Virus record (IMG/VR): IMGVR_UViG_3300003322_000515
Span: 1 to 61,028 of that record
DNA from: a virus
Direction: 5' to 3' (one strand)
DNA length: 61,028 nucleotides
Part shown: piece by piece, positions 9,171-39,519 of the stretch
Position numbering within the stretch: the stretch's first letter is position 1
How the letters are laid out: each line of letters starts with the position of its first letter
Notes under the pieces: generated by a model
What the model was told of the DNA's origin: nothing
What the model saw: only the letters and a program-made list of their open reading frames with translations
Database searches by the model: none
Made by a program: the position numbers and the translations under genes

Positions 9171-9389
9171 ATGACTCAGCACGAGAGACCGTCGCGCGTT
9201 CTTATCGCGGCGAATGACAACCACCCAGACCGCCTAACAATGATGATTCCCCACAACGGTGGCTGCTCGACGACGAGTGGCCTGGTGCCGGTATCAACAA
9301 AGCGCGTCGGCACCAATGAGGCCGCTGACGACGCCGACATTCAGGCCGGTCTTGCGGTCACTGAATATTGCTTGCAGGTGGCGGCATGA
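9171..9389 (+). CDS. Hypothetical protein (72 aa) with AANDN motif
   Basis: Conserved leader CACCACCACATAGAGGAGACTGCATG; ANDN at 9210-9221. Confidence 0.6.
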   Translation: MTQHERPSRVLIAANDNHPDRLTMMIPHNGGCSTTSGLVPVSTKRVGTNEAADDADIQAGLAVTEYCLQVAA

Positions 9390-13347: not shown

Positions 13348-13407
13348 CCAGCAATACAGCGGCGGGTCGTCAACCAGCGGCCCGCCATCACCACTGAGGA
13401 GATGAGA

Positions 13408-14314: not shown

Positions 14315-15379
14315 ATGCAATTATCCATAGCGAGAACCGACCTCGCGCGCGTTTTGACAGCCACCAGTAAGGTGGTTGAAAGCCGCAATACCATCCCCAT
14401 TCTCAGCCATCTTCTCTTGGAAGCTGACAAGGACGGACTAAAAGTCACCGGCTCTGATCTCGACATCACAGCAACGGCTCGCTGCGATGCTGACGTTACC
14501 AAGGCCGGCAGCGTGTGTGTTGACGCCAAGCTGATCGGCGACATTGCACGAAAGGCTGGAGACTCCCTCATCAGTCTGTCACTTGACGGTGACAAGTTAA
14601 CTGTCAAAAGCGGCCGCAGCAAGTTCAGCCTTGCTACCCTCTCGCCGGCAGACTTCCCAGTCATGAATGCCGGAGCATTCGACGCAGAATTCGATATCGA
14701 CCTTGCGGCGCTTTTCGCGCCGGTATCTTTCGCCATCTCGCAAGACAAGACTCGCCCGTATCTCGAAGGCATCTATCTGCACGTCGTAGACAACAGGGCT
14801 GTTGCGGTGGCTACCAATGGCCACAGGCTCGCGCGGCATGTTGGGCAGGATGTTCCTGCCTTTCCGTCTGTTATTATAGGACAGAAGGCAGTTTCGCTTA
14901 TCTCTGCTACCAAGGGTGTCGTTCATCTGTCAGTTAGCGAGAGCCTGATACGTGTAACGTCACAGGATTTCGTGCTCACAAGCAATCTCGTAGACGGCAT
15001 GTACCCTGACTATCCGCGCGTCATTCCGGTCGCCAATGAACTGGTGGTTAGTGCCGACAAGGGCGACATCCTGAAGGCTGCCGATCGCGTTGCCACCGTC
15101 TCATCTGAGCGGGGGAGTGCGGTCAAGCTTTCCGTTGCGCCTGGAGCTATCGCGCTTTCAGTTCACTCCATGGTTGGCGATGCCAATGACGAGGTGCAAG
15201 CGGAGTACAGCGGCAAGCCTGTCTATATCGGCTTTAACTCGGTCTACCTCCGCGATGCACTGCAGGTATTTCCTGACGGGCCGGTTGTTCTGGCGCTGCG
15301 CGATTCCGGCTCTCCGGCTCGCATCACATCGCCTGTATATGAGGCGCTGGACGTCACACTTATGCCAATGAGGGTTTAG
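14315..15379 (+). CDS. dnaN: DNA polymerase III beta sliding clamp homologue
   Basis: 354 aa. N-terminus MQLSIARTDLARVLTATSKVVESRNTIPILSHLLLEA, with typical DnaN length and pattern throughout. Confidence 0.85.
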   Translation: MQLSIARTDLARVLTATSKVVESRNTIPILSHLLLEADKDGLKVTGSDLDITATARCDADVTKAGSVCVDAKLIGDIARKAGDSLISLSLDGDKLTVKSGRSKFSLATLSPADFPVMNAGAFDAEFDIDLAALFAPVSFAISQDKTRPYLEGIYLHVVDNRAVAVATNGHRLARHVGQDVPAFPSVIIGQKAVSLISATKGVVHLSVSESLIRVTSQDFVLTSNLVDGMYPDYPRVIPVANELVVSADKGDILKAADRVATVSSERGSAVKLSVAPGAIALSVHSMVGDANDEVQAEYSGKPVYIGFNSVYLRDALQVFPDGPVVLALRDSGSPARITSPVYEALDVTLMPMRV

Positions 15380-16600: not shown

Positions 16601-17080
16601 ATGCCGCCCACCAACAATACCCGCCCCACCACATTCGACGCAGCCCTCACCAGCTACCTACCGTCGTTGCGCAAGCAAGCAGCGTTCATTGCTGGCGATA
16701 ACGGCGATGACCTGTTGCAAGACGCTGTCGTTTCAATGCTCCATCTCGCACCAAAATGCAGAATGGAGACATTCAAGACATGGGCGCAAATCATCCTGCG
16801 TCGCACCGCGGGCAATAACAAGCGCCTAGCGCGAGCCGCTAAACGTCAACAAGATCCCATGTTCGCTCAGGCGTCGGCACCAGCCAGTCAGGAGGTTCAT
16901 GCTGAACTTTCCGAGGCCTTGGCGGCTCTATCCACCATCAAGCATGGAGAAATCGTTCTGCGGCGCGCCATGGGCGATTTGCTGAAGGACATCGGCACCG
17001 ACCGCGGCACGAATCGTGAGGCGGTTCGCCAACTCGAGGTCAAGGCGCGACGTGCGCTTATCAAGAGGATGGCGGCATGA
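16601..17080 (+). CDS. ECF-like sigma-70 family protein (paralogue 1)
   Basis: Region-2-like DLLQDAVVSML and region-4-like HTH LLKDIGTDRGTNREAVRQLEVKARRAL. Ends MAA. Confidence 0.6.
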   Translation: MPPTNNTRPTTFDAALTSYLPSLRKQAAFIAGDNGDDLLQDAVVSMLHLAPKCRMETFKTWAQIILRRTAGNNKRLARAAKRQQDPMFAQASAPASQEVHAELSEALAALSTIKHGEIVLRRAMGDLLKDIGTDRGTNREAVRQLEVKARRALIKRMAA

Positions 17081-17583
17081 GTGTGGCTGCGAACGATAAC
17101 GACAACAACGCCAACGACAACAACGCAAACGATAATCGACCAGCTGCCTTCGACGACGCTGTTATTTCCTACCTACCGCGCCTACTGAAAGTCGCCGCTC
17201 GACTGCAGCCGTCAGAAAGAGAAGACCTCGTGCAGGCGACTGTCGAGACAGCGCTGAAATGCTGGAAATCCTACAATACAACCAAGAATCTAGGTGGCTG
17301 GCTGGTATTCCAGATGCGGAACATCAATTTTAAATGGCTGTCGTCTAAGCGACCGCGCGGCACGGACACAGCGCTTGAGTTTCTGGCCATCGAGCCGACC
17401 CAGCAAGACTATATGGACGCAGATGACATCCTGCGCACTGTCGAAGCTAGCCCACATGCCGCCATGCTGAATCGCCTTGCCATGGGCGATACCATGGGAG
17501 AGGTTGCCGCCAGGTTTGGCGTTTCCAAGCAGCGCGTGCATCAGAAGGTTGTTGAGTTTCGGCGTTCGGCGAGGGTGGTGTAG
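17077..17583 (+). CDS. ECF-like sigma-70 family protein (paralogue 2) with a triple ANDN N-terminus
   Basis: N-terminus MSVAANDNDNNANDNNANDNRP. EDLVQATVETAL...W and region-4 HTH MGEVAARFGVSKQRVHQKV. Shares FDxAxxSYLPxL with the upstream paralogue. Confidence 0.65.
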   Translation: MSVAANDNDNNANDNNANDNRPAAFDDAVISYLPRLLKVAARLQPSEREDLVQATVETALKCWKSYNTTKNLGGWLVFQMRNINFKWLSSKRPRGTDTALEFLAIEPTQQDYMDADDILRTVEASPHAAMLNRLAMGDTMGEVAARFGVSKQRVHQKVVEFRRSARVV

Positions 17584-17927
17584 TGCGGTTGGTTGTGACG
17601 GGTGGCCGTGATTATACCGACACGGCGCGCATCTTCGCTGCACTCGACGAGCTGCACGGCAGGCGGCCTATATCAGTCCTTATCGAAGGTGAGGCGCGCG
17701 GGCTTGATGCCCGCGCGAAGGCATGGGCGAAGCGCCGCGGCATTGCCGTCGACCCGTATCATGCGGATTGGGACAAATACGACAAGGCCGCAGGCGGAAT
17801 CCGCAATCAACAGATGATTGATGAGGGCAGGCCGCAGTATGGGCTGGTATTTCAAGGCGGCTTTGGCACAGCTGACATGAGGCGCAGGCTGTTTGCTGCT
17901 GGCGTTCCATTTGAGGATGTACGCTGA
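17583..17927 (+). CDS. DUF2493 / SLOG-family protein
   Basis: MRLVVTGGRDYTD...LIEGEARGLD pattern. Confidence 0.6.
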   Translation: MRLVVTGGRDYTDTARIFAALDELHGRRPISVLIEGEARGLDARAKAWAKRRGIAVDPYHADWDKYDKAAGGIRNQQMIDEGRPQYGLVFQGGFGTADMRRRLFAAGVPFEDVR

Positions 17928-19741
17928 TGCTTGAGCTCCGCTATTATCAACGAGATTCGTTAGATGCACTATATAAATACTGGGAGGAGGGCGGCGGCAA
18001 CGGCCTAATAGTGCTCCCGACTGGCGCAGGCAAAGCGCTCGTCATCGCCAAGCTCATCGAAGAACTATTAAGCCAGTATCCAGATCTGCGCATCCTCAAT
18101 GTCACGCACAGCGCAAGCCTCGTCGAACAGAACTTCAAAGAGTTCATTGGACTCATGCCGTTCGCACCAGCTGGCATCTACTCGGCCGGCCTCAAGCGTC
18201 GTGACGCACGAGCGCAGATCCTTTTCTGCGGCATTCAGTCTGTTTGGAATAAGGTAGAGCAACTTGGCGAAATCGACCTCGTCATTGTTGATGAGGCGCA
18301 CGCCATCAGCAGGAACTCAAACACCCAATATGGCAAGTTCTTCAAAGAGGTTCGACGCCTCAACCCAGATAGCCGCACCTGCGGCACCACCGCGACCGAC
18401 TATCGTATGGATTCAGGTCGACTGACTGATGATATTGACGACGACAATCCATCATTGGTTGTCAATAACAATGGCGAGGTTGTTGTCGCCAACGACAATG
18501 GCGAAGCCGTCGCGCCTGTCAAATTCAAGCTTTTCGACGATGTCGTCTATGAAGTCGGCATCGGCGAACTGATTGATAAAGGGTACCTAACGCGCCTTAC
18601 CAGCCAGAGGACAACATCGAAAATCGACCTTAAGGGCATCGGCAGCCGTGGAGGAGAGTACATACCTGGCCAGGTCTCTGAGGCTGCGGAGCGCATCATT
18701 GAAGAGGCGATCGCCGAGGACATGGTATTGTCTGAAGGCAGGCGCGCCGGTTTGTTCTTCAGCACCAGCAAGGAAAATGCCAATCACATTGCGCAGGCTA
18801 TCCGTCGGCATGGTAGACCATGTGCTGTCCTGACCAGCGACAATGCGCACCAGACGAAAGAGATTTTCGAGGGTTTTCGCTCTGGGAAATATTGGGCAAT
18901 CTCGTCCGTCTCGATGATCACGACCGGCACCAATTTCCCATTTGTTGATTTCATCTCGCTGATCCTGTCAACAAAGTCCCCGGGCAAACTAGTGCAGATT
19001 TTGGGAAGGGGAACGCGCAACTCCCCGGGCAAGACGGAATGCCTTGTTGCCGATCATGGCAGAAACCTTGCTTACCACGGCCCGATTGATCAGATCCGCC
19101 CGCGTGAGCCGGGCAAAGGTTTAGGCGAGCAGCCTAAAAAGCAATGTCCGCAAGAGGATACGCCGAATGCGGTTCGCGACGTGAACGGCAACTATGGATG
19201 CGGCGAGCTTATCCCTATTTCGATCATGACGTGCCAGTGCTGTGGCTATGTCTTTCCGCCGAACGAGGAAGAGAAGATCACTGCGCAGGCATCGGATGTG
19301 CCGGTACTGTCCACGGAGAAACCTTGGTATGAAGTCTCATCGAGGACATTCCGCCACCATCCGGGCAAGATTGATGCCAGCGGAAAACAGAAGCCAGATT
19401 CGGTGAAATGCACATATATGATTGGAATGAAGGCCGTAAATGAGTGGCACTGCTGCGAGCATGACGGCTTCCCAAAATCCAAGGCTCAAAGGTGGTGGGT
19501 TCAGCACGGTGGCAAACGACCCATGCCCAAGACAGTGATTGAGTGGCTTGAGCGGCAACACGAGCTTGCGCCGACAGTTGAGGTGCAACTCGACTACAGC
19601 CGCAACCCAAAATACCCCGATGTCATGGCGCACCGCGTCGGTCTTCTGGTTGCGAACGACAACCATCCGCAGGCCGCAAACGATAACGGCAAAGGAATGC
19701 CCGATTGGGAGCGCGATATGATGGACGAGGTTCCTTTTTAG
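17927..19741 (+). CDS. SF2 DEAD/DEAH-box DNA helicase with a C-terminal zinc-ribbon region
   Basis: Walker A LPTGAGKA; DEAH box VIVDEAHA; CQCCG zinc motif. Three ANDN copies. C-terminus MMDEVPF. Confidence 0.85.
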   Translation: MLELRYYQRDSLDALYKYWEEGGGNGLIVLPTGAGKALVIAKLIEELLSQYPDLRILNVTHSASLVEQNFKEFIGLMPFAPAGIYSAGLKRRDARAQILFCGIQSVWNKVEQLGEIDLVIVDEAHAISRNSNTQYGKFFKEVRRLNPDSRTCGTTATDYRMDSGRLTDDIDDDNPSLVVNNNGEVVVANDNGEAVAPVKFKLFDDVVYEVGIGELIDKGYLTRLTSQRTTSKIDLKGIGSRGGEYIPGQVSEAAERIIEEAIAEDMVLSEGRRAGLFFSTSKENANHIAQAIRRHGRPCAVLTSDNAHQTKEIFEGFRSGKYWAISSVSMITTGTNFPFVDFISLILSTKSPGKLVQILGRGTRNSPGKTECLVADHGRNLAYHGPIDQIRPREPGKGLGEQPKKQCPQEDTPNAVRDVNGNYGCGELIPISIMTCQCCGYVFPPNEEEKITAQASDVPVLSTEKPWYEVSSRTFRHHPGKIDASGKQKPDSVKCTYMIGMKAVNEWHCCEHDGFPKSKAQRWWVQHGGKRPMPKTVIEWLERQHELAPTVEVQLDYSRNPKYPDVMAHRVGLLVANDNHPQAANDNGKGMPDWERDMMDEVPF

Positions 19742-22441: not shown

Positions 22442-23251
22442 ATGCGAGTTGAGCGCATCGGCGACGCCGTGCTCTACAATGGCGATTGCCTGGAGGTGAT
22501 GGCTGAGATCGGTCGCGCTGACCATATGATTTTTGATCCGCCATACGAGGCTACCCTTCACGCTGCAAAAAACAGTCTGAAGGGCCGCAAGCATCGCAAC
22601 GACGGCGTTGCTGAACTAAAGGGCCTCGACTTCGCGCCGATCGATGCAATCCGTGATGATGTCGTTAGACTTGGCGAAGCTCATTGCAATGGATGGTTCA
22701 TTGCGTTCTGCACTGTCGAGGGCGCAGCAAAGTGGGCAGACGCTATCAATGCTTCATCTTTGAAATACAAGCGCGCTTGCGTATGGGTTAAGCCTGACTC
22801 CACGCCGCAATTAAACGGTCAGGGTCCTGCGCAGGGTGCAGAAATCTTCGTTACCGCATGGGACGGAAGTGGCTTCGCGAAGTGGAATAGCGGCGGCAAG
22901 CGCGGCGTCTATACGCATTGCGTGAATGTGGGCAGGGACGGCCGACACCCAACCGAAAAGCCGATTCCGCTTATGCGCGAGCTTCTGCAGGACTTCACTA
23001 ATCCAGGTCAGACCATCCTTGACCCATTCATGGGCAGTGGCACGACTGGCGTTGCGTGCGCCAAGATGGGCCGGAAGTTCATCGGCGTCGAACTGGACAC
23101 AAAGTACTTCGAGATCGCATGCGAGCGCATCGAGAAGGCGTATGCGCAAGGCGACATGTTTGTCGAGGCGCCGCGTCGCAAAGACAAGCCCGCAGACATG
23201 TTCGCCGCAAACGACAATACACCGGTCGCCACCCTCAAAGGTGCAGCATGA
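22442..23251 (+). CDS. DNA methyltransferase (beta-class, DPPY motif)
   Basis: MIFDPPYEA catalytic motif and DPFMGSGTTGVA SAM motif. C-terminus AANDNTPVATLKGAA. Conserved leader upstream. Confidence 0.9.
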   Translation: MRVERIGDAVLYNGDCLEVMAEIGRADHMIFDPPYEATLHAAKNSLKGRKHRNDGVAELKGLDFAPIDAIRDDVVRLGEAHCNGWFIAFCTVEGAAKWADAINASSLKYKRACVWVKPDSTPQLNGQGPAQGAEIFVTAWDGSGFAKWNSGGKRGVYTHCVNVGRDGRHPTEKPIPLMRELLQDFTNPGQTILDPFMGSGTTGVACAKMGRKFIGVELDTKYFEIACERIEKAYAQGDMFVEAPRRKDKPADMFAANDNTPVATLKGAA

Positions 23252-23643
23252 CCCCCATCAAACTCCCCGGCAAGCCCATCATTCCGTTTACACCGACCCA
23301 AGACGAGCACCACAACCCCACGGTTTGCAAGGCCTGCGGATGTCTCGCGATCGGACTTGGCAGGAGCGCGCCCGCTGACAAGTCACGGCCACCAGACCCG
23401 GGCTATCTCTGCAAATCTTGCATCGTCGCACTAGGAGACCTCACGAAATTGGACAGAATTAGCTTGTATGAAGTTAAAGCCTTGGAAAAAGGCGTCGAGG
23501 CTGTCGGCGAGTGGATCGCCGAGAACGGCGGGCTGACCGAGCTAGCCCATTATGACGAGCTCATGCAGCTAATGCTTGTGCGAGCTGCGTGGGATGGATG
23601 TGCGCAGGGTGTGCGGGAGGCTTTGCGCGATGCACCTTTCTGA
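23248..23643 (+). CDS. Cys-containing hypothetical protein (131 aa)
   Basis: ATGA overlap with the methylase stop. CKACGC...CKSC suggests a zinc ribbon. Confidence 0.55.
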   Translation: MTPIKLPGKPIIPFTPTQDEHHNPTVCKACGCLAIGLGRSAPADKSRPPDPGYLCKSCIVALGDLTKLDRISLYEVKALEKGVEAVGEWIAENGGLTELAHYDELMQLMLVRAAWDGCAQGVREALRDAPF

Positions 23644-24394
23644 TGTTGCGAATGATAACAACCTTGTTACAAATCATGGGTCAAAAAGCGATTTACACCC
23701 AGAATATGTAACACCCATCGCTGCACTCTATGTCGAGACGGATGGCGCATATTACGGGCTGCATGGCGTCGACCCGTGGGATGAGGCGCGAGACGCGCGC
23801 CTTTACGATGGGCCGCATCCGGTTGTTGCCCATCCTCCATGCCAGAGATGGGGCAAGCTGTGGGCTGGTCAGCCGCTATTTATCAAGCAGACTGGCATCC
23901 GCAAGATCAAGGGTGATGACGCAGGTTGCTTCGCCGCAGCTCTGGCGGCAGCGCGCAGATGGGGTGGCGTCATCGAGCATCCATGGCAAAGCCATGCGTG
24001 GCCGCACTTCGGACTAAACACGCCGCCGCGCGACGGCGGGTGGATCGTTGCTGATTTTCATGGCGGGTGGACCTGTTGCGTGGAGCAGGGTAGGTACGGA
24101 CACTATGCCCGCAAGCCTACGATGCTGTTAGCCTATGGCGTTGACCTGCCTGAACTAGAGTGGGGACATAGTGAGATGCGGTTGGACCCTGCGGTCGTAG
24201 AGCGCATGGGGCTGAAGCGCGCCAAACGATTGGGCGAGGTTGGTGCCCGCGGCGGTGGTCAGAACAGCACGCCACGCATCCACACGCCAGCGCCCTTCAG
24301 GGATCTGCTTATTGGTATGGCTCGCTCTGTGCGCGTCGCAGCCAACGATAATCACCAATCAGCACCAACAGCCCGCAACGTCTCCCATGCGTGA
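23630..24394 (+). CDS. Hypothetical protein with C5-methyltransferase-like HPPCQ and IEHP motifs
   Basis: ORF 23576-24394; the ATG at 23630 gives MHLSDVANDNN. AHPPCQRWG and GVIEHP resemble Dcm motifs IV and VI, but no FxGxG motif I is seen. Two ANDN copies. Confidence 0.55.
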   Translation: MHLSDVANDNNLVTNHGSKSDLHPEYVTPIAALYVETDGAYYGLHGVDPWDEARDARLYDGPHPVVAHPPCQRWGKLWAGQPLFIKQTGIRKIKGDDAGCFAAALAAARRWGGVIEHPWQSHAWPHFGLNTPPRDGGWIVADFHGGWTCCVEQGRYGHYARKPTMLLAYGVDLPELEWGHSEMRLDPAVVERMGLKRAKRLGEVGARGGGQNSTPRIHTPAPFRDLLIGMARSVRVAANDNHQSAPTARNVSHA

Positions 24395-24877: not shown

Positions 24878-27196
24878 ATGGCAAAACTAAACCTCAAAAA
24901 TTCAACCATCCCAACGCCCAAAGACCTAGCGCACGAGTACGCATCCAAGGGCTGGCCAGTATTCCCCTGCCGACCTCGATACGAAACAGTCATAAACAGC
25001 CAAGGTAAACCTGAGCCCAAAAAGCCCAAAAGCCCGCTTACGAGATTTGGATTTAGGGAGGCGACAAAAACCACCAAGCAAATTGACTATTGGTGGTCAC
25101 AGAATCCTGATGCACTCGTGGGCGTGCCAACTGGCGCGCCTTCTGGCATTTGGGTGCTCGATATCGACGTGCCCAGCGAAGAGCACACAGAAGACGGTCG
25201 CGGCTGGCTTGCCGAGATGGAGGAACTGCACGGTCAGTTGCCGGCCACCCGTATGGTCACCACGGCAAGTGGCGGGACACATTACTATTGGCGGCATGTT
25301 GACGGCGTGCGCAATAAGGCGGCGCTCGCTCCTGGCGTTGATACGCGCGGCGACGGAGGCTTTGTCTGTGTTCCAGGCAGCGTTCTGGAAGATGGCACTT
25401 TCTATGAATGGGCCAACGACGAACCAATAGCCGATGCGCCAGAATGGTTGCTGGATATGGTCATCGCGCCACCATCACCAGCCGTGTCGACGCAGCCAAT
25501 GACCTATAAGTCTGGCACAAACGATCGATATGTGGATGCTGCAGTTGATTCTGAGTTGTCAGACCTTGCTGGTACGACGCAAGGCAGCCGCGGATTCCGG
25601 CTTAATCGCAGCGCGTTCTCCCTTGGCCAGATTGTCGCAAGCGGTGCCCTGTCAAGGTCTGATGCGGAGGCCGGCCTATACAATGCCGCACTGGCCAATG
25701 GTCTTGTTGCAGTCGATGGCGAACGGGAAGTGCTTGCCAAGATTCGCCGCGGTCTTGACGCGGGTATGAAGCAACCGCGCGAGATTCCGGAACCGGATAT
25801 TCAGCAGGATAATACGCGCCTCATGGATATCACCCGCATGATTAGAAACGGTCTGGCCAAGGCCAAGCGAAACAAAGAAACAACCATCGAGTTGCCTGGC
25901 GTCGACCCGGAACGCGAAGAGTTGATCGCTGATTATATCGTCAATCATCCCGAAGAATATCCTCTTGAAGAAGACACGCCGCTAGAAGAGGCCGCTGATG
26001 AGTTGCCGACCGAGCAAGAGCCAGCAAACGACAACTCGCCAAACGGGCCGATCACTGCGACAGCATTTAAGTGGATCGATCCCAAAACATTACCTAGGCG
26101 CGAGTTTGCTTTCGGCACGCATTACATCCGCAAGTACGTGTCCGTGACCGTCTCGCCTGGAGGTCTTGGCAAGACGTCAAACAGCATTGTCGAGGCGCTT
26201 GCGATGGCATCTGGAAAGGATCTGACTGGGACGAAACCGCCGCAGAGAATGAAAGTTTGGCTTTTCAATGCTGAGGACCCGCGCGATGAGCTTGAGCGAC
26301 GAATCATGGCTGCATGCATCCATTTTAAGCTGAAGCCAGAAGACATCGAGGGCTATCTTTTCCTTGATACCGGTCGTGAGCAAGAGCTTGTGGTCGCACT
26401 AGAGGACAAAAAGGCTGGCGTACGCATTCAGCAACCGGTCGTCGAGGCTGTGGTAGAGCAGATGAAGACAAACGGGATCGACGTGATGGTTGTCGATCCT
26501 TTCGTGTCAACTCACGGCGTCAATGAGAATGATAATGGTGCGATCGACAAGGTTGCCAAGCTTTGGTCGCAAATCGCCGACCTGACAAACTCCTCTATCG
26601 ATATTGTGCACCACCTTCGCAAGGTGGCTGACCGTGAGGCTACGGTAGAGGACGCTCGAGGCGCCGTGTCCCTGATCGGTGCGGCACGATCAGTACGTGT
26701 TCTCAATCGCATGTCGGAAGAGCAGGCCACGACAGCTGGCATAGAGCCAGCGGCAAGGTTCGGCTATTTTTCCATCACGTACGGCAAGTCAAACCTCACT
26801 GCCATGTCGCACAAGCTTGATTGGCGGCGGCTGGAGAGCGTGCCGCTTGGGAATGGGCGAGGGCTAACGAAGCCGCAGGACCACGCTCCAGTAGTCACTG
26901 AATGGCGATGGCCTAGCGCTGAGGAAGCCGTCGGCGACGTATCGGCCGAACAGTTGGCGCAGATCATAACTCGCGTGCGCAACACAGATTGCAAGCTTCA
27001 TCATCAAGCGGAGAACTGGATAGGGCGCGAGGTTGCGTATGTACTCGGACTGGACATCGCGATTAAGGCAGATTCTGCTCGTATAAAACGCCTCGTGAAG
27101 GCGTGGATTGATGACGGAACATTCGTCGTTGTGAACCGCAGGTGCCCCATAAAACGGGAAAACAAGGACTTCGTAGAAGTTGCAAATTCTGATTAG
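24878..27196 (+). CDS. Bifunctional primase-polymerase (prim-pol) / AAA (RepA-like) replication protein
   Basis: N-terminus KGWPVFPCRP...GIWVLDIDV (prim-pol); C-terminal P-loop SPGGLGKTS. 772 aa. ANDN at 26024-26035 in the interdomain linker. Confidence 0.85.
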   Translation: MAKLNLKNSTIPTPKDLAHEYASKGWPVFPCRPRYETVINSQGKPEPKKPKSPLTRFGFREATKTTKQIDYWWSQNPDALVGVPTGAPSGIWVLDIDVPSEEHTEDGRGWLAEMEELHGQLPATRMVTTASGGTHYYWRHVDGVRNKAALAPGVDTRGDGGFVCVPGSVLEDGTFYEWANDEPIADAPEWLLDMVIAPPSPAVSTQPMTYKSGTNDRYVDAAVDSELSDLAGTTQGSRGFRLNRSAFSLGQIVASGALSRSDAEAGLYNAALANGLVAVDGEREVLAKIRRGLDAGMKQPREIPEPDIQQDNTRLMDITRMIRNGLAKAKRNKETTIELPGVDPEREELIADYIVNHPEEYPLEEDTPLEEAADELPTEQEPANDNSPNGPITATAFKWIDPKTLPRREFAFGTHYIRKYVSVTVSPGGLGKTSNSIVEALAMASGKDLTGTKPPQRMKVWLFNAEDPRDELERRIMAACIHFKLKPEDIEGYLFLDTGREQELVVALEDKKAGVRIQQPVVEAVVEQMKTNGIDVMVVDPFVSTHGVNENDNGAIDKVAKLWSQIADLTNSSIDIVHHLRKVADREATVEDARGAVSLIGAARSVRVLNRMSEEQATTAGIEPAARFGYFSITYGKSNLTAMSHKLDWRRLESVPLGNGRGLTKPQDHAPVVTEWRWPSAEEAVGDVSAEQLAQIITRVRNTDCKLHHQAENWIGREVAYVLGLDIAIKADSARIKRLVKAWIDDGTFVVVNRRCPIKRENKDFVEVANSD

Positions 27197-27429: not shown

Positions 27430-27918
27430 ATGGCTCGCACCAAGACCACCACCCAAACAACTCGCGTCAACGGCGTACGTGTTCGCCTCGTCACGACGAC
27501 TTCCGCCAGCGGCACGAAGGTCACCGTCAAAGCGGCCCCAACCGAAGAATGGCTGCTACAGGCTGCCGCGGTACGCGCGTTGCGCGCCATGCCGGAATAC
27601 GGCAAGCTGTTCACGTTGGCGGGAGACTTCAACGCGGCTCGTCGTTCTATGCTCGAGCAGGTCAAGGCCAAGGCTACAGGGCTTACGCCTGGGGAGCACG
27701 ATAAGCGCGTGTACATGATTGGCGGTCGGCTAGGTTTGATCGAATACAAGAATGCGGATGGCCGTTTGTCAAAAGAGCAAATCAGCCGGCACGCTGAGCT
27801 TCATGCATTGGGATTCACACTGCAGGCTGTAATCAAGGCCACCACCGAGGAAGAGGCGGCTAGGAAGGCGGTTGCCGTCGTTAAAGGTTGGCTTGGCGAA
27901 CTGGCTATTGCTGCGTGA
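27430..27918 (+). CDS. VRR-NUC domain nuclease
   Basis: GEHDKRVYMIGGRLGLIEYKNADGRLSKEQ...LHALGF (PD-ExK of VRR-NUC type); conserved leader. Ends IAA. Confidence 0.7.
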   Translation: MARTKTTTQTTRVNGVRVRLVTTTSASGTKVTVKAAPTEEWLLQAAAVRALRAMPEYGKLFTLAGDFNAARRSMLEQVKAKATGLTPGEHDKRVYMIGGRLGLIEYKNADGRLSKEQISRHAELHALGFTLQAVIKATTEEEAARKAVAVVKGWLGELAIAA

Positions 27919-28026: not shown

Positions 28027-28788
28027 ATGGCCAAAGCTACCACCACAAGAATAACCAAAGCCCTCATCGGTGAGGGTGATGACCTACCGGCTCGCATGAA
28101 TTACGCCGAACACGAGCGCGAAGGCGTTCACGCTCAAAAGAGTCGCCTTGCGATAATGGCCAAGAAAGGCGCCAATTGGGACGGAGAGGCAGCAAACGAC
28201 AATATCGCGTGGCCGCTGGCCACCTCCCTTATTCGTGAGGGAAATACAGAACTGCTGAAGGCCGCCATGCTTTACCGCAAGACGCACGACATGGCTCATA
28301 GCGGAGCTCTTCTTGGTGGTAGAACGGCCAGCATTGGCGACGGAATGGCGTTGGATAGATATTCGTATGTGAGGCCGAACGGAACCGTTACATATGCTCG
28401 TCCGCGACAGAAGAAATCTGCAGACGTTGATATTCCAGCAAAGCAGTACACCGCGCCACCTTCTTACGACAATATTGTCGTTACCTCGGAAGAGGTGAAG
28501 GTTAGTAATTGGTCAAATATCCCCAAGCCATACAAGGGCGATGAGCCAGTAAATAACAAGATCGATGCGCAAGCGCGTCTTTCCATTCTTCGCCAGCGAT
28601 TGGGTGTCCTAGCTGAACCTCTAGAGATGGCTGTTGTTGACGGAGCGACATACCAAGCGGTCGGCAACGCGTCAGGTGTTGCCGATCGAAGCGGCTCTAT
28701 AGCGGCAGGTCGAGCAATCGTGCATATGGCGCTTATCGCCCTACGTGACGCAATGGGCGAAATACGGCGAGAAGACTTAGCCGCATAA
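28027..28788 (+). CDS. Hypothetical protein (253 aa); the only gene between P3 and the late-leader terminators, so a candidate late regulator
   Basis: Conserved leader; ANDN at 28192-28203. Ends DLAA. Function is inferred only from position. Confidence 0.65.
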   Translation: MAKATTTRITKALIGEGDDLPARMNYAEHEREGVHAQKSRLAIMAKKGANWDGEAANDNIAWPLATSLIREGNTELLKAAMLYRKTHDMAHSGALLGGRTASIGDGMALDRYSYVRPNGTVTYARPRQKKSADVDIPAKQYTAPPSYDNIVVTSEEVKVSNWSNIPKPYKGDEPVNNKIDAQARLSILRQRLGVLAEPLEMAVVDGATYQAVGNASGVADRSGSIAAGRAIVHMALIALRDAMGEIRREDLAA

Positions 28789-30887: not shown

Positions 30888-32471
30888 ATGGCCAAGAAGC
30901 CTAAGCCGCTTAGCCGCGGCGAGCGCGTCATTGCGTTTATCGAACGCTATTGTCTAGTCCCAGAGGGGACACTTCTCGGCAAGCCGGTGAAGTTGTTGCC
31001 GTTTCAGCGTAAATTCATTCTGGCCGTTTACGACAACCCTGCCGGCACATCTCGCGCCTACCTGTCGATAGCTCGTAAGAACGGCAAGACCGGTCTCATT
31101 GCTTGCCTTCTGCTTGCCCACATCGTTGGGCCAGAGGCTTACAAGAATGGCCGCATAGTTTCCGGCGCCCGCTCGCGTAAGCAGGCCGCCGAAGTCTTCA
31201 ATTACGCCTCAAAAATGATCATGATGTCGACGGAGCTTTCTAAGCTTGCGCGCATCGTGCCGTCCAGCAAAATGATTGTTGGCCTGGCGAAAAACGTGGA
31301 ATATCAGGCTAGTTCGGCTGAAGCAAAGAGCGCGCACGGAGGCTCGCCAATCCTCGCCATCCTAGACGAGGTTGGCCAGATCAAGGGTCCGACAGACGAT
31401 TTCGTTGAGGCTATCGAGACATCGCAGGGTGCCTACGAAGGCAAGGCGATGCTCTTCGCGATCTCGACGCAGGCCGCGACTGATAACGATCTTTTCAGCA
31501 GGTGGATTGATGACGCAGAGACGTCGAAGGATCCGCGCATTGTTAGCCATGTCTATACGGCTCCAAAAGAATGCGAGCTTAACGATAGGTCTGGCTGGGC
31601 TGCTGCCAATCCTGCGCTGGGCGTCTTCCGTTCGATAAAGGATGTTGAAGACTTTTCTAAACTGGCAAGTCGCATGCCAAGCAAGGAGGCCAGCTTTCGC
31701 TGGCTGTTCCTGAATCAGCGCATCGACGCAAGCGCGCCATTCGTGGCGCCAGCCATCTGGCGCGCTTGTGATGGCGCCGTGGACGATTTCGCTGGCCTGC
31801 CAGTCTTCGGTGGGCTCGATCTTTCGGAAGTGTCCGACTTGACCTCCTTGGTGCTTATGGCACCGAAGGCTACGGATGCTGGCACAGTCTGGCACGTGAA
31901 GCCAACATTCTGGCTGCCAGGCGATAGCCTGCGCGACAAGGCCAAGGCAGACCGCGTACCGTACGATATCTGGCACGCCGACGGCAAACTAGAAACGACG
32001 CCAGGGCCGACGGTAGATTACGAATTCGTTGCGCACCATCTACGCGGCTTGTTCGATGAGCTTGACATCCGCAAGATTGCTTTTGACCGATGGAACTGGC
32101 GGCATTTGAAGCCGTGGTTGCAGGCGGTGGGATTCACCGAGGAGCAACTTGACGGCGATAACGCGGTCTTTGAGCAATTCGGCCAGGGATATGCGTCTAT
32201 GTCGCCGGCTCTGCGCGACCTAGAAAGCATCCTGCTAAACAAACGGCTAGCTCACGGCGGCCATCCTGTCCTGACGATGTGCATGATGAATGCCACGGTG
32301 CGACCAGATCCATCTGGAAACCGCAAACTGGACAAGCTGAAGTCGCGGGGCCGCATCGATGGTGCGGTCGCTTTGACGATGGCCACCGCGATGGCTGGCA
32401 CCTATGAGGGTGCGGCTGACACGACATCACCCTGGGACGACCCTGAATTTTCACTTAATAAGGCGGCATAA
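30888..32471 (+). CDS. Terminase large subunit
   Basis: 527 aa; ATPase motif IARKNGKTGL; AILDEVG Walker B; nuclease half. Ends KAA. Confidence 0.9.
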   Translation: MAKKPKPLSRGERVIAFIERYCLVPEGTLLGKPVKLLPFQRKFILAVYDNPAGTSRAYLSIARKNGKTGLIACLLLAHIVGPEAYKNGRIVSGARSRKQAAEVFNYASKMIMMSTELSKLARIVPSSKMIVGLAKNVEYQASSAEAKSAHGGSPILAILDEVGQIKGPTDDFVEAIETSQGAYEGKAMLFAISTQAATDNDLFSRWIDDAETSKDPRIVSHVYTAPKECELNDRSGWAAANPALGVFRSIKDVEDFSKLASRMPSKEASFRWLFLNQRIDASAPFVAPAIWRACDGAVDDFAGLPVFGGLDLSEVSDLTSLVLMAPKATDAGTVWHVKPTFWLPGDSLRDKAKADRVPYDIWHADGKLETTPGPTVDYEFVAHHLRGLFDELDIRKIAFDRWNWRHLKPWLQAVGFTEEQLDGDNAVFEQFGQGYASMSPALRDLESILLNKRLAHGGHPVLTMCMMNATVRPDPSGNRKLDKLKSRGRIDGAVALTMATAMAGTYEGAADTTSPWDDPEFSLNKAA

Positions 32472-33736
32472 TGGCTTTAAAAGACTGGTTTAGCCGCCGA
32501 AATGCGGAAAATGCGCCAGAAACGCGCGCAAACATCGAAAATCCAACGATCCCAGCAAGCGCCGACAATTTTCTGGCGTTCTTCGGGGTGCAGAGTGCGA
32601 ACCTGCCTCACGTGACGATCGACAACGCGCTGAATGTCCCGGCCGTCATGGCGGCCGTGGCGTTTCTGTCTAGAACCCTGGCTGCGGTGCCTCGGCACGC
32701 CTACCGGACTCGAAAAGGCAGCGGCGAGCGTATCGGCGGCAGGCTCGAGACGGTTGTGAACACGGCGCCGAACGACACGATTGGCGCTTTCAAGTTCTGG
32801 CAGTGGTTTTGGCAGCAGGTTTTTACCGGCGGTCGCGGCCTTGCCTATATCGAGCGCACGCCACAGGGGATTGATTCTCTTTGGCCGATGGATCCGACGA
32901 AGACCACGATCAAGCGCGTGGGGATACGGGTCGTTTATCAGTTCGAGAGCAAGGAATACGACGCGGCAGACGTCATCGACGTGCCGTTCATGCTGAAGCC
33001 TTGCGGGCTGCGGCACTACGGCCCGATCTACAAGGCGTCGAAAGCCATTCAGCTTGCGATTGCCATGAACGACTACGGCTCGAACTTCTTTGCTGGTGGC
33101 GGCGTGCCGCCTTTGGCGCTTGAAGGTCCGTTGCCTGCCGGCGCCGAAGCGATGAAGCGGGCGCAGGCTGATATCAAGCGGTCTGTCGACGCGGCGAAGA
33201 ATGCAGATGAGCCGATCTTTCCGATTCCCGCCGGCTACAAGCTTGCGCCGGTCGGCATTGATCCGGCCAAGGGGCAGATGGTTGAGGCACGGAAGTTTCA
33301 GGTCGAAGAAATAGCTCGCGCCTTTCAATTGCCGCCGGTGTTCTTGCAGGATCTGTCCCGCGCGACGTTCAGCAATGCAGAGCAACAGGATCTCCATCTG
33401 GTCAAGCACCTGATCGGTCAGTGGGCTAAGGCGCTTGAGGATGAGCTCAACCTTAAATTCTTCGGCCGCAACGGCGGCCGGTATATTGAGCACAACCTCG
33501 ATGGCCTGCTACGCGGCGACTTCAAGAGCCGCATGGATGGTTACGGCCTTGCGATCCAGAATGGCATTCGGACTCCTGACGAGGTGCGAGCGCTCGAGAA
33601 CCTGCCGGCAAAAAGTGGCCCGGCTGACAAACTCTACATCCAAGGGGCCACCGTGCCGCTTGGGTCGCAGCCAAAAGCAGGCGCAGACCAGCCAGCCAAT
33701 GACAATAATCCCGATGATGAGGCGCAGGCCGCATGA
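32471..33736 (+). CDS. Portal protein (HK97 family)
   Basis: 421 aa, in the position after terL, with a typical portal pattern. C-terminus QPANDNNPDDEAQAA. Confidence 0.9.
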   Translation: MALKDWFSRRNAENAPETRANIENPTIPASADNFLAFFGVQSANLPHVTIDNALNVPAVMAAVAFLSRTLAAVPRHAYRTRKGSGERIGGRLETVVNTAPNDTIGAFKFWQWFWQQVFTGGRGLAYIERTPQGIDSLWPMDPTKTTIKRVGIRVVYQFESKEYDAADVIDVPFMLKPCGLRHYGPIYKASKAIQLAIAMNDYGSNFFAGGGVPPLALEGPLPAGAEAMKRAQADIKRSVDAAKNADEPIFPIPAGYKLAPVGIDPAKGQMVEARKFQVEEIARAFQLPPVFLQDLSRATFSNAEQQDLHLVKHLIGQWAKALEDELNLKFFGRNGGRYIEHNLDGLLRGDFKSRMDGYGLAIQNGIRTPDEVRALENLPAKSGPADKLYIQGATVPLGSQPKAGADQPANDNNPDDEAQAA

Positions 33737-36514: not shown

Positions 36515-36919
36515 ATGGCAGATCTCACAATCACACCAGCCAACGTCGTCGCCGGCTCCAATGCCACGCGCGATATCGGTACTGCAGGCGAAACCATCGT
36601 CGCAGGCAAGGCCGTGTTCCTGAACGCAGCCACCAACAAGTGGATGCTCTCTGACAACAACGGCACAGGCACACGGCAGGTGAAGGGCATTGCGCTAAAC
36701 GGCGCCAGCCTCAACCAGCCGCTTTCTGTTCTGAAGGATGGCGACGTCACGATCGGCGCTACGCTCGTTGCTGGCCAGGATTATTGGCTTAGCGCTACTG
36801 CCGGCGGCATTTGTCCGCGCGCTGATCTGGCAACAGGCATGGACACGATCCTGATTGGTATCGCCAAGAGCACGACTGTTCTTGCTGTCGATATTCAGGA
36901 TTCAGGCGTCACGCTCTGA
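36515..36919 (+). CDS. DUF2190-like head decoration/cement protein candidate
   Basis: 134 aa, Gly/Ala-rich beta pattern (GKAVFL...GIALNGA...VLKDGDV). Confidence 0.55.
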   Translation: MADLTITPANVVAGSNATRDIGTAGETIVAGKAVFLNAATNKWMLSDNNGTGTRQVKGIALNGASLNQPLSVLKDGDVTIGATLVAGQDYWLSATAGGICPRADLATGMDTILIGIAKSTTVLAVDIQDSGVTL

Positions 36920-38698: not shown

Positions 38699-39136
38699 AT
38701 GGTAACCACACCGGGCCAACAGCTTGGCCGCCTGCTTCTTATCCAGATTGGCGACGGCGCAGATCCCGAGGTTTTCTCTAACCTATGCGGTCTGAAGACT
38801 CGAAGCTTCAATCTCAGCACAGCATCCGTCGATACGACCATCCCATCGTGCACGAATCCGGGCGATGTCGTCCAGAAGACGAGCCGTCCCGGTCAGGCTT
38901 CGCGCACATTCACCGGTTCTGGTGCTTTTGTGGCCGGCGCGAATATGTCCGCATTCATGACGCACGTCATCAATGCCACCGTCTTCAATGCGCGCGTGAT
39001 TGTTCCTGGTCTCGGAACGTTTGAAGGCCCTTACTTCGTATCTGACTCCACCCTGAGCGGTGATGTCGACCCAAACATGGAATTCAGCGCCACCTTTGAG
39101 GCTGCTGACATCCTGACGTTCACACCTGAAGCCTAA
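38699..39136 (+). CDS. Major tail protein
   Basis: 145 aa; GTA/TP901-1-like pattern (LLIQIGDGADPEVF...); position. Confidence 0.75.
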   Translation: MVTTPGQQLGRLLLIQIGDGADPEVFSNLCGLKTRSFNLSTASVDTTIPSCTNPGDVVQKTSRPGQASRTFTGSGAFVAGANMSAFMTHVINATVFNARVIVPGLGTFEGPYFVSDSTLSGDVDPNMEFSATFEAADILTFTPEA

Positions 39137-39519
39137 TGCCGAAAAAAGAGGAGAAAACAGTGGCTGCAACTACAAAGGCACCTGCGTTTAAGCATGCAAT
39201 CAATGAGGCGCGCGGAGAAGTGCGCCTCGTCATCGATGATGTCGAGCTAGTCATTGCAGCGACGATAGGCGGACTGTCAGCGGTTTCTAGCAGGCTGCAG
39301 TGCAAGTCTCTCGACGATCTTATCCAGCGCCTTTCCGGAGCCGAGGTCTCTGCTACTGAGGCTGCAATTGCGCTGCTCACCGTAAAAGGTGACGTGGTTG
39401 GCGCCTTGGAAAAGTTGAATTTGAGGCACTTCCGTGCTTGCGCCGCCGCCTTTACTGCGGCGCTTTCGCACCACATCGGCGGTGACGAGGGAAACGAGCC
39501 AGCCGCTCAGGCGGCATAG
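39136..39519 (+). CDS. Tail assembly chaperone (GTA g10-like)
   Basis: Position between the major tail and tape measure genes. Ends AQAA. Confidence 0.65.
   Translation: MPKKEEKTVAATTKAPAFKHAINEARGEVRLVIDDVELVIAATIGGLSAVSSRLQCKSLDDLIQRLSGAEVSATEAAIALLTVKGDVVGALEKLNLRHFRACAAAFTAALSHHIGGDEGNEPAAQAA

Follow-up and report, generated by a model that had tools for sequence, protein, structure and literature searches.

The proteome of a 16-3-like temperate rhizobiophage was found to contain, far more often than expected, the two ends of its host's tmRNA (ssrA) tag. In the window, that is, the whole 61,028-nucleotide stretch of the IMG/VR virus record IMGVR_UViG_3300003322_000515, the tetrapeptide ANDN, an exact match to residues 1 to 4 of the encoded host tag ANDNYAEARLAA, occurred 22 times in 16 proteins against 0.19 copies expected, a 115-fold enrichment (Poisson p~1e-37; this and all p-values below are optimistic, since the samples include orthologues and syntenic host loci, which are not independent). 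It was the commonest tetrapeptide of the window proteome, and permuted controls gave approximately none. Furthermore, 17 of the 89 window ORFs ended in Ala-Ala, a terminus expected from composition in about 1.3%. ANDN and the Ala-Ala end are two separable peptide elements under selection, and with both tag halves on about a third of the nonstructural proteins, the stability of these proteins is probably placed under host SspB-ClpXP. In the reading that we favor, with moderate confidence and from sequence, the portal protein tail exemplifies an imitation of the host tag that is encoded by the phage genome, is spread over the nonstructural proteome, and would route proteins to SspB-alpha-ClpXP.

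Five proteins carried ANDN in a C-terminal tail, as follows:

32471-33736, plus strand: portal gene (PF04860 Phage_portal, E 5e-81), translation ending in QPANDNNPDDEAQAA
33695-33733, plus strand: C-terminal tail of the portal protein, ANDNNPDDEAQAA, 13 aa, followed by the stop codon at 33734-33736
23189-23248, plus strand: tail of a CcrM-like N6/N4 methyltransferase (gene 22442-23251, translation ending in AANDNTPVATLKGAA), PADMF-A-ANDNTPVATLKGAA, including a 14-aa tag look-alike
182-226, minus strand: tail of a second N6/N4 methyltransferase (gene 179-1081, translation ending in PANDNAPPTPDLFGAA), ANDNAPPTPDLFGAA, 15 aa
56787-56825, plus strand: tail of an SbcD-like DNA repair exonuclease (ORF 55506-56828, translation ending in AANDNVPAEQARAA), ANDNVPAEQARAA, 13 aa
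24341-24391, plus strand: fifth tail (ORF 23576-24394), ANDNHQSAPTARNVSHA, 17 aa, with a His-Ala end

The first-pass annotation had listed four tagged proteins, namely, the portal, the two methyltransferases, and ORF 55506-56828. All four are real, with sequences and coordinates exactly as it gave them, but the count was too low, given the fifth tail and 17 further ANDN sites. Its name for ORF 55506-56828, metallophosphoesterase, is plausible; the ORF matched PHROG 704, "DNA repair exonuclease" (E 5e-126), and had no Pfam match at a cutoff of E≤0.01. Both methyltransferases matched N6_N4_Mtase in Pfam (E 8e-42 and 2e-25). In the first, the pentapeptide PADMF, which resembles a beta-clamp-binding motif, immediately preceded the tag look-alike, and its orthologues read PASLF-ANDN...GAAA in phage AP-16-3 and PASLF-AANDN...EAA in RHph_TM3_3_14B (TM3), each at the C-terminus. 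In the second, the domain spanned residues 23 to 265 and ANDN began at residue 286. The ORF with the fifth tail had another ANDN close to its N-terminus (23648-23659).

The portal tail likewise lay beyond its domain: the Pfam match covered residues 57 to 377, and ANDN began at residue 409. Had the tails been peculiar to this virus, portal homologues would lack them; instead, about 98 of the 120 cluster representatives kept ANDN 12 to 18 residues from the C-terminus, and 112 of the 120 ended in Ala-Ala. The most frequent tail length among them was 12 residues (43 representatives), followed by 13 (35 representatives), and ANDN and the terminal Ala-Ala formed fixed islands within hypervariable surrounding sequence. 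An AF2 model of the portal, built from a 34-sequence alignment, had a mean pLDDT of 49, too low to be informative.

The distance between ANDN and the C-terminus followed a strict rule that agreed with the length of the host tag, which has 12 encoded residues (confirmed with ARAGORN and Rfam RF01849 for R. phaseoli, R. leguminosarum, R. tropici, and Ensifer). In the window and three related phages, 21 of 65 sites lay 11 to 17 residues from the end (1.8 expected), none lay nearer than 11, and 19 of these 21 proteins were Ala terminated. Across 80 independent viral loci, 55 of 124 contexts lay 11 to 14 residues from the end (3.0 expected), again with none closer than 11, and all 55 were Ala terminated. 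The relatives of the exonuclease 55506-56828 on 80 viral contigs had tails of 11 to 14 aa, every one Ala terminated. Complete phage tails, counted from the Ala of ANDN to the C-terminus, measured 11 to 17 residues with a mode of 12 to 13, and together with the host tag sequence and the Ala ends these values bear out the proposal that the tails reproduce the layout of the tmRNA tags of alphaproteobacteria. As had also been proposed, the tag is encoded in the gene itself: the tails are in frame within phage ORFs and closed by ordinary stop codons, so that they are not genuine trans-translation tags. No tmRNA or tRNA gene was found in the window. Six viral-contig tails that resembled real tmRNA tags were checked, and a single one (L092) proved to be a tmRNA gene.

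The phenomenon had been framed as four C-terminal tags; the results describe it better as two separable motifs distributed over the proteome, with most ANDN sites internal or N-terminal. The 17 ANDN sites besides the C-terminal tails were located in N-terminal tails and linkers and included the following:

9210-9221, plus strand: residue 14 of a 72-aa protein (9171-9389) ending in QVAA; site conserved in 16-3, AP-16-3, and TM3
10339-10350, plus strand: residue 214, in an interdomain linker, of the protein 9700-10881, ending in RIAA
13246-13257, plus strand: residue 158, in the C-terminal tail, of the DUF669 protein 12775-13347 (domain, residues 14 to 119); conserved in AP-16-3, TM3, and 16-3
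14140-14151, plus strand: residue 247 of the protein 13402-14256, ending in PLAA
17089-17136, plus strand: three tandem copies at residues 5, 12, and 17, in the N-terminal tail of the sigma-70-like factor 17077-17583, in which Sigma70_r2 begins at residue 31
18488-18499, plus strand: residue 188 of the helicase 17927-19741, between ResIII and Helicase_C
19652-19687, plus strand: two copies at residues 576 and 584, in the C-terminal tail of the same helicase, followed by the SSB-tip-like end MMDEVPF
26024-26035, plus strand: residue 383 of the Prim-Pol/AAA_25 primase-helicase 24878-27196, in the linker directly before AAA_25 (residues 395 to 584)
28192-28203, plus strand: residue 56 of the protein 28027-28788, ending in DLAA
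57347-57358, plus strand: residue 77 of the MazG-like pyrophosphatase 57119-57751, in a linker ahead of the catalytic domain
57847-57858, plus strand: residue 33, in the N-terminal tail, of the HD-type dNMP phosphatase 57751-58479
59586-59732, plus strand: two copies at residues 38 and 83, in the N-terminal extension of the dNMP kinase 59475-60260

All ANDN sites that were checked lay outside the Pfam domains of their proteins, in flanks that were Pro rich and depleted in order-promoting residues, and the consensus around the motif was [A/P]-A-N-D-N-x-P. The preceding residue was Ala in 30 of 61 contexts, resembling the Ala carried by tmRNA. The helicase tail, with its two ANDN copies and SSB-tip-like end, had the same layout in 16-3, AP-16-3, and TM3, and homologues of the primase-helicase on two viral contigs (L115 and L122) had ANDN at the matching position. 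ANDN thus has the properties of a short linear motif: it comprises few residues, occupies disordered regions, stays the same while its flanks diverge, recurs on unrelated proteins, and matches a host sequence.

The Ala-Ala terminus was enriched in its own right, 12- to 17-fold. It was present in 22% of window ORFs of at least 100 aa and in 1.6% of 825 host-type ORFs (Fisher p=6e-11), and host-type ORFs contained 1 genuine ANDN per approximately 250,000 aa; a general trait of the host proteome is ruled out by these two values. Nine ANDN-free proteins of the window ended in Ala-Ala:

30888-32471, plus strand: large terminase, ending in FSLNKAA
33733-34365, plus strand: prohead protease (Peptidase_S78), ending in RQDAA
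20580-21362, plus strand: exonuclease (phrog_10477), ending in KRAA (KVAA in orthologues)
11360-12151, plus strand: Sak4-like annealing protein, ending in GVAA (GLAA and DDAA in orthologues)
9368-9703, plus strand: protein ending in EGAA
5556-5789 (minus strand), 16601-17080 (sigma-like), 27430-27918, and 39136-39519: four further proteins

The terminase (TerL) kept its Ala-Ala terminus in homologues down to 24% identity, and Ala-Ala ends and ANDN sites were conserved protein by protein in orthologues. In contrast to the rest of the genome, the structural, tail, and lysis block (34448-54517) had ANDN in 0 of 26 ORFs (Fisher p=0.004) and an Ala-Ala end in 1 of 26 (p=0.019). The repressor (7055-7780, minus strand; ending in SGKY) and the integrase (1078-2250, minus strand; ending in RREG) had neither ANDN nor an Ala-Ala end. 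The two elements also covaried: proteins with internal ANDN only ended in Ala-Ala in 10 of 31 cases, compared with 36 of 282 ANDN-free proteins (p=0.007), and among the other ORFs of ANDN-rich viral contigs 12% had Ala-Ala ends, compared with 2.7% in ANDN-poor contigs (p=4e-4). The trait was common to phages 16-3, AP-16-3, and RHph_TM3_3_14B and to many viral contigs, and the Labrenzia and Variovorax relatives were without it. A literature search turned up no account of the ANDN motif in a phage, and the AP-16-3 genome paper is silent on it.

Under the favored reading, the phage tails would be read as the tag is. ANDN corresponds to the part of the tag read by the SspB adaptor in proteobacteria. 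Host SspB-alpha would bind ANDN and tether the protein to ClpX, which would then engage the Ala-Ala (sometimes Val-Ala) end as a degron of the ClpX "C-motif-1" type. An alphaproteobacterial adaptor for tmRNA-tagged proteins was reportedly described by Lessner and colleagues in 2007, and in a PDB sequence search the Caulobacter orthologue was not recovered with E. coli SspB as the query. Early and middle enzymes and regulators would thereby acquire short half-lives set by host protease capacity, unassembled portal, terminase, and prohead protease would be likewise short-lived, and virion proteins would be exempt. Plausible benefits for a temperate phage are that leaky lytic-gene products would be removed from lysogens, that early functions would be shut off on time, and that all tagged proteins would be linked through one saturable protease. 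SspB-alpha binding, ClpXP degradation, and these physiological purposes are what we infer from the protein sequences. Going further, and only tentatively, the whole lineage (16-3 and many Rhizobium, Ensifer, and Mesorhizobium prophages) may have wired roughly a third of its nonstructural proteome into host ribosome-rescue proteolysis as a threshold or timer for the lysis-lysogeny decision. At low expression, from leaky prophage genes or upon entry into lysogeny, all tagged proteins would be degraded, and at the high expression that follows induction they would saturate the shared protease queue, allowing the lytic program to accumulate jointly.

Several observations weigh against proteolysis as the function. 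The residue that follows ANDN in the tags is aromatic (Tyr in rhizobia and Phe in Caulobacter) and is followed by Ala, and the phage motif has a variable residue there, followed usually by Pro and in other cases by Ala. SspB-alpha binding could be weak or absent if the aromatic residue is required. Approximately two-thirds of the ANDN sites do not lie close to a C-terminus, and there is no Ala-Ala end on 34 of 54 ANDN proteins, implying that ANDN must also have an effect where no canonical ClpX degron is present. Leu is seldom found ahead of the terminal Ala-Ala, so any degron may be weak. In addition, instability of the replication enzymes and portal of the phage itself looks costly.

Among the alternatives, the one that survives best, though we consider it unlikely, is that ANDN is a docking motif for a reader unrelated to proteolysis, such as the phage DnaN, an uncharacterized early protein, or another host protein, and that its likeness to the tag is coincidental. 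Such a reader would bring enzymes of DNA metabolism, methyltransferases, and sigma factors together at a center of replication, transcription, or packaging. The carriers of ANDN are indeed overwhelmingly DNA-metabolism and regulatory proteins, the majority of the sites are internal or N-terminal, and a DnaN is encoded by 4 of 4 ANDN-rich phages and by none of the ANDN-poor relatives. The tails also bear other host-type linear motifs, including the clamp-binding-like PADMF and QLSLF and the SSB-tip-like DEVPF, but these canonical clamp-type pentapeptides adjoin ANDN, so that ANDN is not itself a clamp-binding motif. Scans of about 40 window proteins against Pfam and PHROG found no adaptor-like domain and no phage-encoded SspB- or Clp-like adaptor, and ANDN tails occurred on viral contigs whose ANDN-bearing ORFs had no homologue in the 16-3 group. 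Docking would leave unexplained the exact identity with the start of the host tag, the preference for Ala before ANDN, the minimum of 11 and mode of 12 to 13 residues to the C-terminal Ala, and the excess of Ala-Ala ends together with their covariation with ANDN.

Somewhat less probable is a collective decoy, in which the motifs would serve chiefly to occupy SspB and ClpXP, and not to mark their carriers for destruction, so that tmRNA-tagged or other ClpXP clients escape degradation; the beneficiaries could be phage proteins, cell cycle regulators, or antitoxins. The 34 ANDN proteins without an Ala-Ala end could bind the adaptor without being degraded, and both the tandem copies (a triplet in the sigma factor and a pair in the helicase tail) and the large number of carriers (about 18 to 25% of the proteins) fit this idea. 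However, one abundant inhibitor would block the adaptor far more cheaply, the sites are kept at orthologous positions in each protein, and the spacing rule, the near-universal terminal Ala, and the exclusion of virion proteins suit a signal for the fate of the individual protein better.

It is very improbable that ANDN is a processing site at which a phage protease, with the trypsin-like protease (Trypsin_2, 54529-55344) and the S78 prohead protease as candidates, trims tails and splits domains. The trypsin-like protease was present in 4 of 4 ANDN-rich phages and missing from Y3_1, Labrenzia, and VarioGold, and ANDN sites fall at domain boundaries. This enzyme, however, begins with a membrane anchor or signal sequence, and a typically periplasmic location is annotated for its 16-3 homologue, whereas the ANDN carriers are cytoplasmic; as a reader of the motif it was therefore rejected as probably periplasmic. 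The prohead protease works inside proheads, the capsid protein has no ANDN, and cleavage would leave unexplained both the fixed distance to the terminal Ala and the Ala-Ala ends of ANDN-free proteins.

There is almost no likelihood that the two elements are a nonfunctional by-product of a diverged DNA repeat or recombination linker, of codon effects or effects of the queuosine tRNAs that decode Asn and Asp, of coupled translation where stop and start codons overlap, or of composition, even though ANDN codons were mildly skewed (GCT was never used for Ala, and GAC was overrepresented for Asp) and several Ala-Ala ends overlapped the start of the next gene (GCATGA). ANDN was encoded by 14 different codon combinations, and its codon usage was essentially ordinary against a context-matched background, with the skew accounted for by TpA avoidance; a DNA-level repeat or recombination linker is ruled out by these two results, and the variation of codons indicates that selection acts on the peptide. 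Of the 64 Q-decoded triplets ([NDHY]3), NDN alone was strongly enriched, and 22 of 26 NDN were preceded by Ala, which rules out a queuosine-tRNA codon cluster. Translational coupling was rejected as the source of the Ala-Ala ends, in which every Ala codon and each of the three stop codons occurred, whether or not the genes overlapped. Finally, host-type ORFs of the same composition lacked both features.

If the motifs work as the favored reading predicts, this would be the first bacterial virus with dense short-linear-motif mimicry of the tmRNA tag. A large share of its proteome would be placed under the control of a host adaptor and protease, adding a posttranslational layer to phage gene regulation, current knowledge of which is almost wholly transcriptional. 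Phage 16-3 together with Sinorhizobium meliloti is well suited to genetic work, and dozens of natural sequence variants for SspB and ClpX recognition in alphaproteobacteria can be found in the tails; these variants could also serve as graded degradation tags for rhizobia. Enrichment of the host tag prefix together with Ala-Ala ends provides a detection rule for the phages of other hosts.

The closest known counterpart is the tmRNA tag/SspB/ClpXP system itself (ANDNYAEARLAA in the host and AANDNFAEEFAVAA in Caulobacter). Both have the same ANDN start, often with a preceding Ala, and the same Ala-Ala-COOH end; the lengths are alike, as the phage tails peak at 12 to 13 residues and the tag has 12 encoded residues plus 1; and the bipartite layout, which in the tag consists of an adaptor-binding part and a ClpX-binding part, is common to both. 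Unlike the tag, the phage sequence is encoded in the ORF and not added by trans-translation, its two halves are frequently remote from each other or one of them is missing, no aromatic residue follows ANDN, Pro stands for the next Ala, and Leu is rare before Ala-Ala. Split recognition by ClpXP is known from the N-terminal fragment of RseA, which has a VAA C-terminus and a distant SspB site, and from lambda O and MuA. In these substrates the site that tethers the adaptor can be remote from the ClpX degron, an arrangement like that of the phage proteins with an internal ANDN and an Ala-Ala end, but they are isolated cases with idiosyncratic sequences, whereas the phage uses one stereotyped, proteome-wide motif that copies the tag. 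Eukaryotic viruses mimic short linear motifs of their hosts as conserved islands in disordered, hypervariable flanks, gained repeatedly on unrelated proteins, and the phage motifs are alike in their shortness, their disordered setting, their conservation as islands, and their occurrence on unrelated proteins. Such mimicry is rarely documented in phages, and we know of no case at 115-fold density or aimed at ribosome-rescue proteolysis.

Phage-encoded degradation tags as such have a precedent, contrary to the initial suggestion that the strategy was undescribed. In the mycobacteriophages BPs and Brujita, C-terminal ssrA-like tags encoded by the phage on Rep and Int are read by host proteases such as ClpXP; in this immunity system two proteins are tagged, and integration removes the tag of Rep since attP lies inside rep (PMC3694055). 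In both cases the tags are encoded by a temperate phage; they tie protein levels to the state of a host protease in the mycobacteriophages and would do so here. The present phage differs in that its repressor and integrase have no tag, one or both elements are found on about 25 other proteins, and the adaptor-binding half of the tag is copied as well; built-in tagging at this scale has not previously been described for a phage.

The window is a complete 61,028-bp JGI contig from a temperate siphovirus that belongs to the group of Rhizobium phage 16-3. Its head genes showed 78-83% DNA identity to those of RHph_TM3_3_14B, Sinorhizobium phage AP-16-3, and RHph_Y3_1, and its portal protein was 75-81% identical to the portals of 16-3, AP-16-3, TM3_3_14B, and Y3_1. 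The encoded proteins included proteases of the S78 (prohead) and Trypsin_2 types, and no tRNA or tmRNA genes were found in the window. The relevant features were as follows:

179-1081, minus strand, DNA methyltransferase
1078-2250, minus strand, integrase
7055-7780, minus strand, HTH/S24 repressor
9700-10881, early protein of unassigned function
14315-15379, the phage's own DnaN clamp
16601-17080, second sigma-like gene
17077-17583, sigma-70-like factor
17583-17927, SLOG-domain protein related to YspA/cpYpsA (PF10686, E 2.7e-22), separating the sigma factor gene from the helicase gene
17927-19741, helicase
22442-23251, DNA methyltransferase
32471-33736, portal
34448-54517, structural/tail/lysis block
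54529-55344, Trypsin_2 serine protease
55506-56828, exonuclease ORF

Residues 352-380 of the early protein (window 10753-10839) matched the ribosomal protein L7/L12 C-terminal domain (PF00542, E 4.9e-6), barely over the gathering score.

Four proteins had been singled out in the first-pass annotation for C-termini resembling complete ssrA tags, with an ANDN start and an Ala-Ala end, and the translated ORFs carried exactly these tails. The carriers were the portal (PF04860, E 5e-81), the two N6/N4 DNA methyltransferases (PF01555), and a protein matching PHROG 704, "DNA repair exonuclease"; because this fourth protein had no Pfam match, its earlier label, metallophosphoesterase, can be called only plausible. 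The observation holds and proves to be much wider: the six-frame translation of the window contained 22 ANDN sequences, in 16 proteins and each in the frame of a long ORF, versus 0.19 expected from the proteome's own composition (Poisson p ~1e-37). ANDN was the commonest tetrapeptide of the window proteome, in which permutations of A, N, D, and N and near variants occurred zero to two times each, and the surrounding consensus was [A/P]-A-N-D-N-x-P. The 22 sites used 14 different codon combinations, and a residual skew (Ala never GCT, Asp GAC in excess) vanished upon comparison with codons preceding AA-starting codons, being ordinary TpA avoidance; selection therefore acts on the peptide. No site checked fell within a Pfam domain of its protein; all were in N- or C-terminal tails or in interdomain linkers, and their flanks were depleted of order-promoting residues (0.24 versus 0.31, p=4e-4) and twofold richer in Pro. 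The sigma-70-like factor starts MSVAANDNDNNANDNNANDNRP, with three ANDN in tandem (17089-17136), and the second sigma-like gene just upstream of it has an Ala-Ala end.

A search of one genome per species for exact matches to the sequence coding for ANDNYAEARLAA and a following TAA found at least 120 loci; the matches listed included Rhizobium phaseoli, R. leguminosarum, R. tropici, Ensifer, Mesorhizobium, Shinella, and Bartonella. ARAGORN identified these loci as tmRNA genes of the permuted type that encode the tag ANDNYAEARLAA, and their matches to Rfam RF01849 (alpha_tmRNA) scored 305-314 bits. Therefore, the phage ANDN equals the first four encoded residues of the hosts' tag. Ala directly preceded ANDN in 30 of 61 contexts, mirroring the Ala donated by tmRNA itself. 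In a host background of 120 of these loci (922 kb; 825 ORFs of at least 100 aa; 249,848 aa), ANDN occurred twice, once as the tmRNA tag read within a spurious ORF; window ORFs in that size range contained 21 ANDN in 17,497 aa. Ala-Ala ends were carried by 1.6% of the background ORFs versus 22% of the window ORFs of this size (Fisher p=6e-11; the host loci are syntenic and their genes not independent). On L092, a viral contig (IMG/VR, GC 0.64), positions 520-880 (minus strand) hold a bona fide tmRNA gene whose tag is ANDNAIADVGIAA; either it marks the edge of a prophage, or the tmRNA is carried by the phage itself.

For the 65 ANDN sites that the window, 16-3, AP-16-3, and TM3_3_14B had together, the distance to the C-terminus was always at least 11 residues; 21 sites fell at 11-17 (1.8 expected), and 19 of these 21 proteins had a terminal Ala. 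This spacing was confirmed in a second sample seeded independently of tail length, consisting of 80 viral contigs with exonuclease relatives and 10-kb flanks: of 124 unique ANDN contexts, 55 lay 11-14 residues from the end (3.0 expected), again with none nearer than 11, and all 55 short-tail proteins ended in Ala (33 AA, 20 VA, 1 MA, 1 CA). Among 120 portal cluster representatives (69-100% identity) from Rhizobium, Ensifer, Mesorhizobium, and Shinella prophages, 98 had ANDN 12-18 residues from the end (at 12 in 43 and at 13 in 35) and 112 ended in Ala-Ala, the two elements forming fixed islands amid variation of ~3 bits/position upstream and 2-3 bits in the spacer. The modal phage tail length was that of the host tag, namely, 12 encoded residues, or 13 counting the tmRNA-borne Ala. 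The two elements were coupled: Ala-Ala ends were found on 10 of 31 proteins with only internal or N-terminal ANDN versus 36 of 282 ANDN-free proteins (odds ratio 3.3, p=0.007). When high-GC viral contigs retrieved by tail pattern were split by ANDN count, 12.0% of the other ORFs ended in Ala-Ala in contigs with at least two ANDN versus 2.7% in those with at most one (p=4e-4).

Overall, 17 of 89 window ORFs had an Ala-Ala end (~1.3-1.6% expected). All Ala codons and all three stop codons were used, whether or not the next gene overlapped, so the excess is no coupling artefact. These ends were kept among orthologues despite differing preceding residues: TerL proteins as little as 24% identical end NKAA, TKAA, or LMAA, the prohead protease ends QDAA, and an exonuclease ends KRAA or KVAA. 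The TerL C-terminus PWDDPEFSxxKAA (window 32430-32468) was conserved in the window, AP-16-3, TM3_3_14B, and Y3_1, even between terminases ~24% identical overall, which suggests that this peptide may be functional beyond its Ala-Ala end.

Three relatives were similarly rich in the motif: 16-3 (14 ANDN in the ORF set, the top tetrapeptide, p 9e-25; Ala-Ala ends on 12/87 ORFs), AP-16-3 (17 in the ORF set and 23 in six frames; 13/87), and TM3_3_14B (12 and 18, respectively; 14/73). Y3_1, which has the same head module but different early genes, had two ANDN and the portal tail TNDN...AQAA, and the motif was absent from a Labrenzia phage (portal 58% identical) and a betaproteobacterial Variovorax phage. 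In viral contigs, even portals 21-27% identical to that of 16-3 bore ANDN-x7-AA tails, as did ORFs without a 16-3-group homologue; the trait therefore reaches past a single phage lineage, among contigs whose GC content is alphaproteobacterial. Two prophage-derived viral contigs, L076 (IMGVR_UViG_2854890933_000008) and L121, each had three or four ANDN-tailed ORFs, several without a 16-3-group homologue, and are good material for delimiting the trait. Within the window, the structural/tail/lysis block had ANDN in 0 of 26 ORFs and an Ala-Ala end in 1 of 26, versus 16 of 63 for each elsewhere (p=0.004 and 0.019, respectively). TerL, portal, and prohead protease, encoded where the late operon begins, were the exceptions; they are needed in few copies or are self-destroying. 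Because the portal C-terminal crown faces the capsid interior, the assembled portal would hide its tail.

No bacterial protein is known to read an AAND-type peptide other than the ssrA-pathway adaptors, SspB, and, in a secondary role, ClpA. For ClpX, the core determinant is a free Ala-Ala C-terminus, and an adaptor site distant from the degron can work, as for SspB with RseA, which fits the proteins combining an internal ANDN with an Ala-Ala end. Mimicry of the tag's two recognition parts would jointly explain why ANDN equals the tag start, often follows an Ala, and keeps its distance from a terminal Ala, and why the two elements are coupled, sit in tails and linkers, and are excluded from virion proteins. 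On these grounds we favor, with belief and doubt about evenly balanced, per-protein delivery of the carriers to ClpXP and to SspB-alpha, the alphaproteobacterial adaptor reportedly described by Lessner et al. in 2007. The tag architecture read from the four tails in the first-pass annotation is supported at the sequence level by the host tag start, the spacing, and the Ala ends. Such delivery might clear leaky lytic proteins in lysogens, provide temporal shut-off, or create a shared saturable queue. The weak points are that the real host tag has an aromatic residue after ANDN, which the phage motif lacks; that two residues past ANDN the phages usually have Pro, whereas real tags have Ala; and that many ANDN proteins have no Ala-Ala end.

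Recognition of ANDN by some other reader, for example a hub or clamp made by the phage, would account for the bias to DNA metabolism enzymes but leaves the tag identity, the spacing, and the Ala-Ala ends unexplained, and we consider it unlikely. Beta-clamp-binding-like pentapeptides adjoin ANDN in methyltransferase tails (window 23189-23203 and 182-205, minus strand; 36794-36838 in the compared locus L002), for example, PADMF in the window, PASLF in AP-16-3 and TM3_3_14B, and PDLFG in the window protein 179-1081; a second TM3_3_14B methyltransferase has the canonical QLSLF, and the window encodes its own DnaN. With regard to a clamp as the reader, the canonical clamp-type motifs (PADMF, PASLF, QLSLF) adjoin ANDN and do not replace it. 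Another linear motif was seen in the helicase, which ends ...PDWERDMMDEVPF* (window 19688-19738), resembling the acidic C-terminal tip of bacterial SSB (DDDIPF); 16-3, AP-16-3, and TM3_3_14B share the ending WEW(EL)DDEVPF*, and the L076 helicase ends ...MLDDDIPF*. This may be SSB-tail mimicry that recruits SSB-interacting proteins.

A decoy or saturation role, which agrees less well with the per-protein conservation and the spacing rule, appears quite improbable. That ANDN is a cleavage site is very improbable, because the conserved trypsin-like protease has a membrane anchor. This Trypsin_2 protease is probably periplasmic, judging from its hydrophobic N-terminal anchor (…RYAAIIVLALGALLGGGIGYA…); it is kept in 16-3 (p036), AP-16-3, and TM3_3_14B and is missing from Y3_1, Labrenzia, and VarioGold. 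Artefactual explanations were rejected in light of the varied ANDN codons, TpA avoidance, the varied Ala-Ala codons and stops, and the host background rates.

The first-pass annotation knew of no such phage strategy, and this holds in part: no description of the ANDN motif or of adaptor-site mimicry in phages was found in the searchable literature, and the AP-16-3 genome paper does not mention the motif, but Rep and Int of mycobacteriophage BPs are established cases of phage proteins whose degradation tags are encoded in the genome (PMC3694055). A tagged repressor and integrase define the BPs system, whereas the window repressor and integrase are untagged. The ingredients, ssrA-like degrons, adaptor tethering, and viral motif mimicry, are already known; what is new is how widely they are used here, that the adaptor-binding half is copied as well, and which pathway would be targeted.
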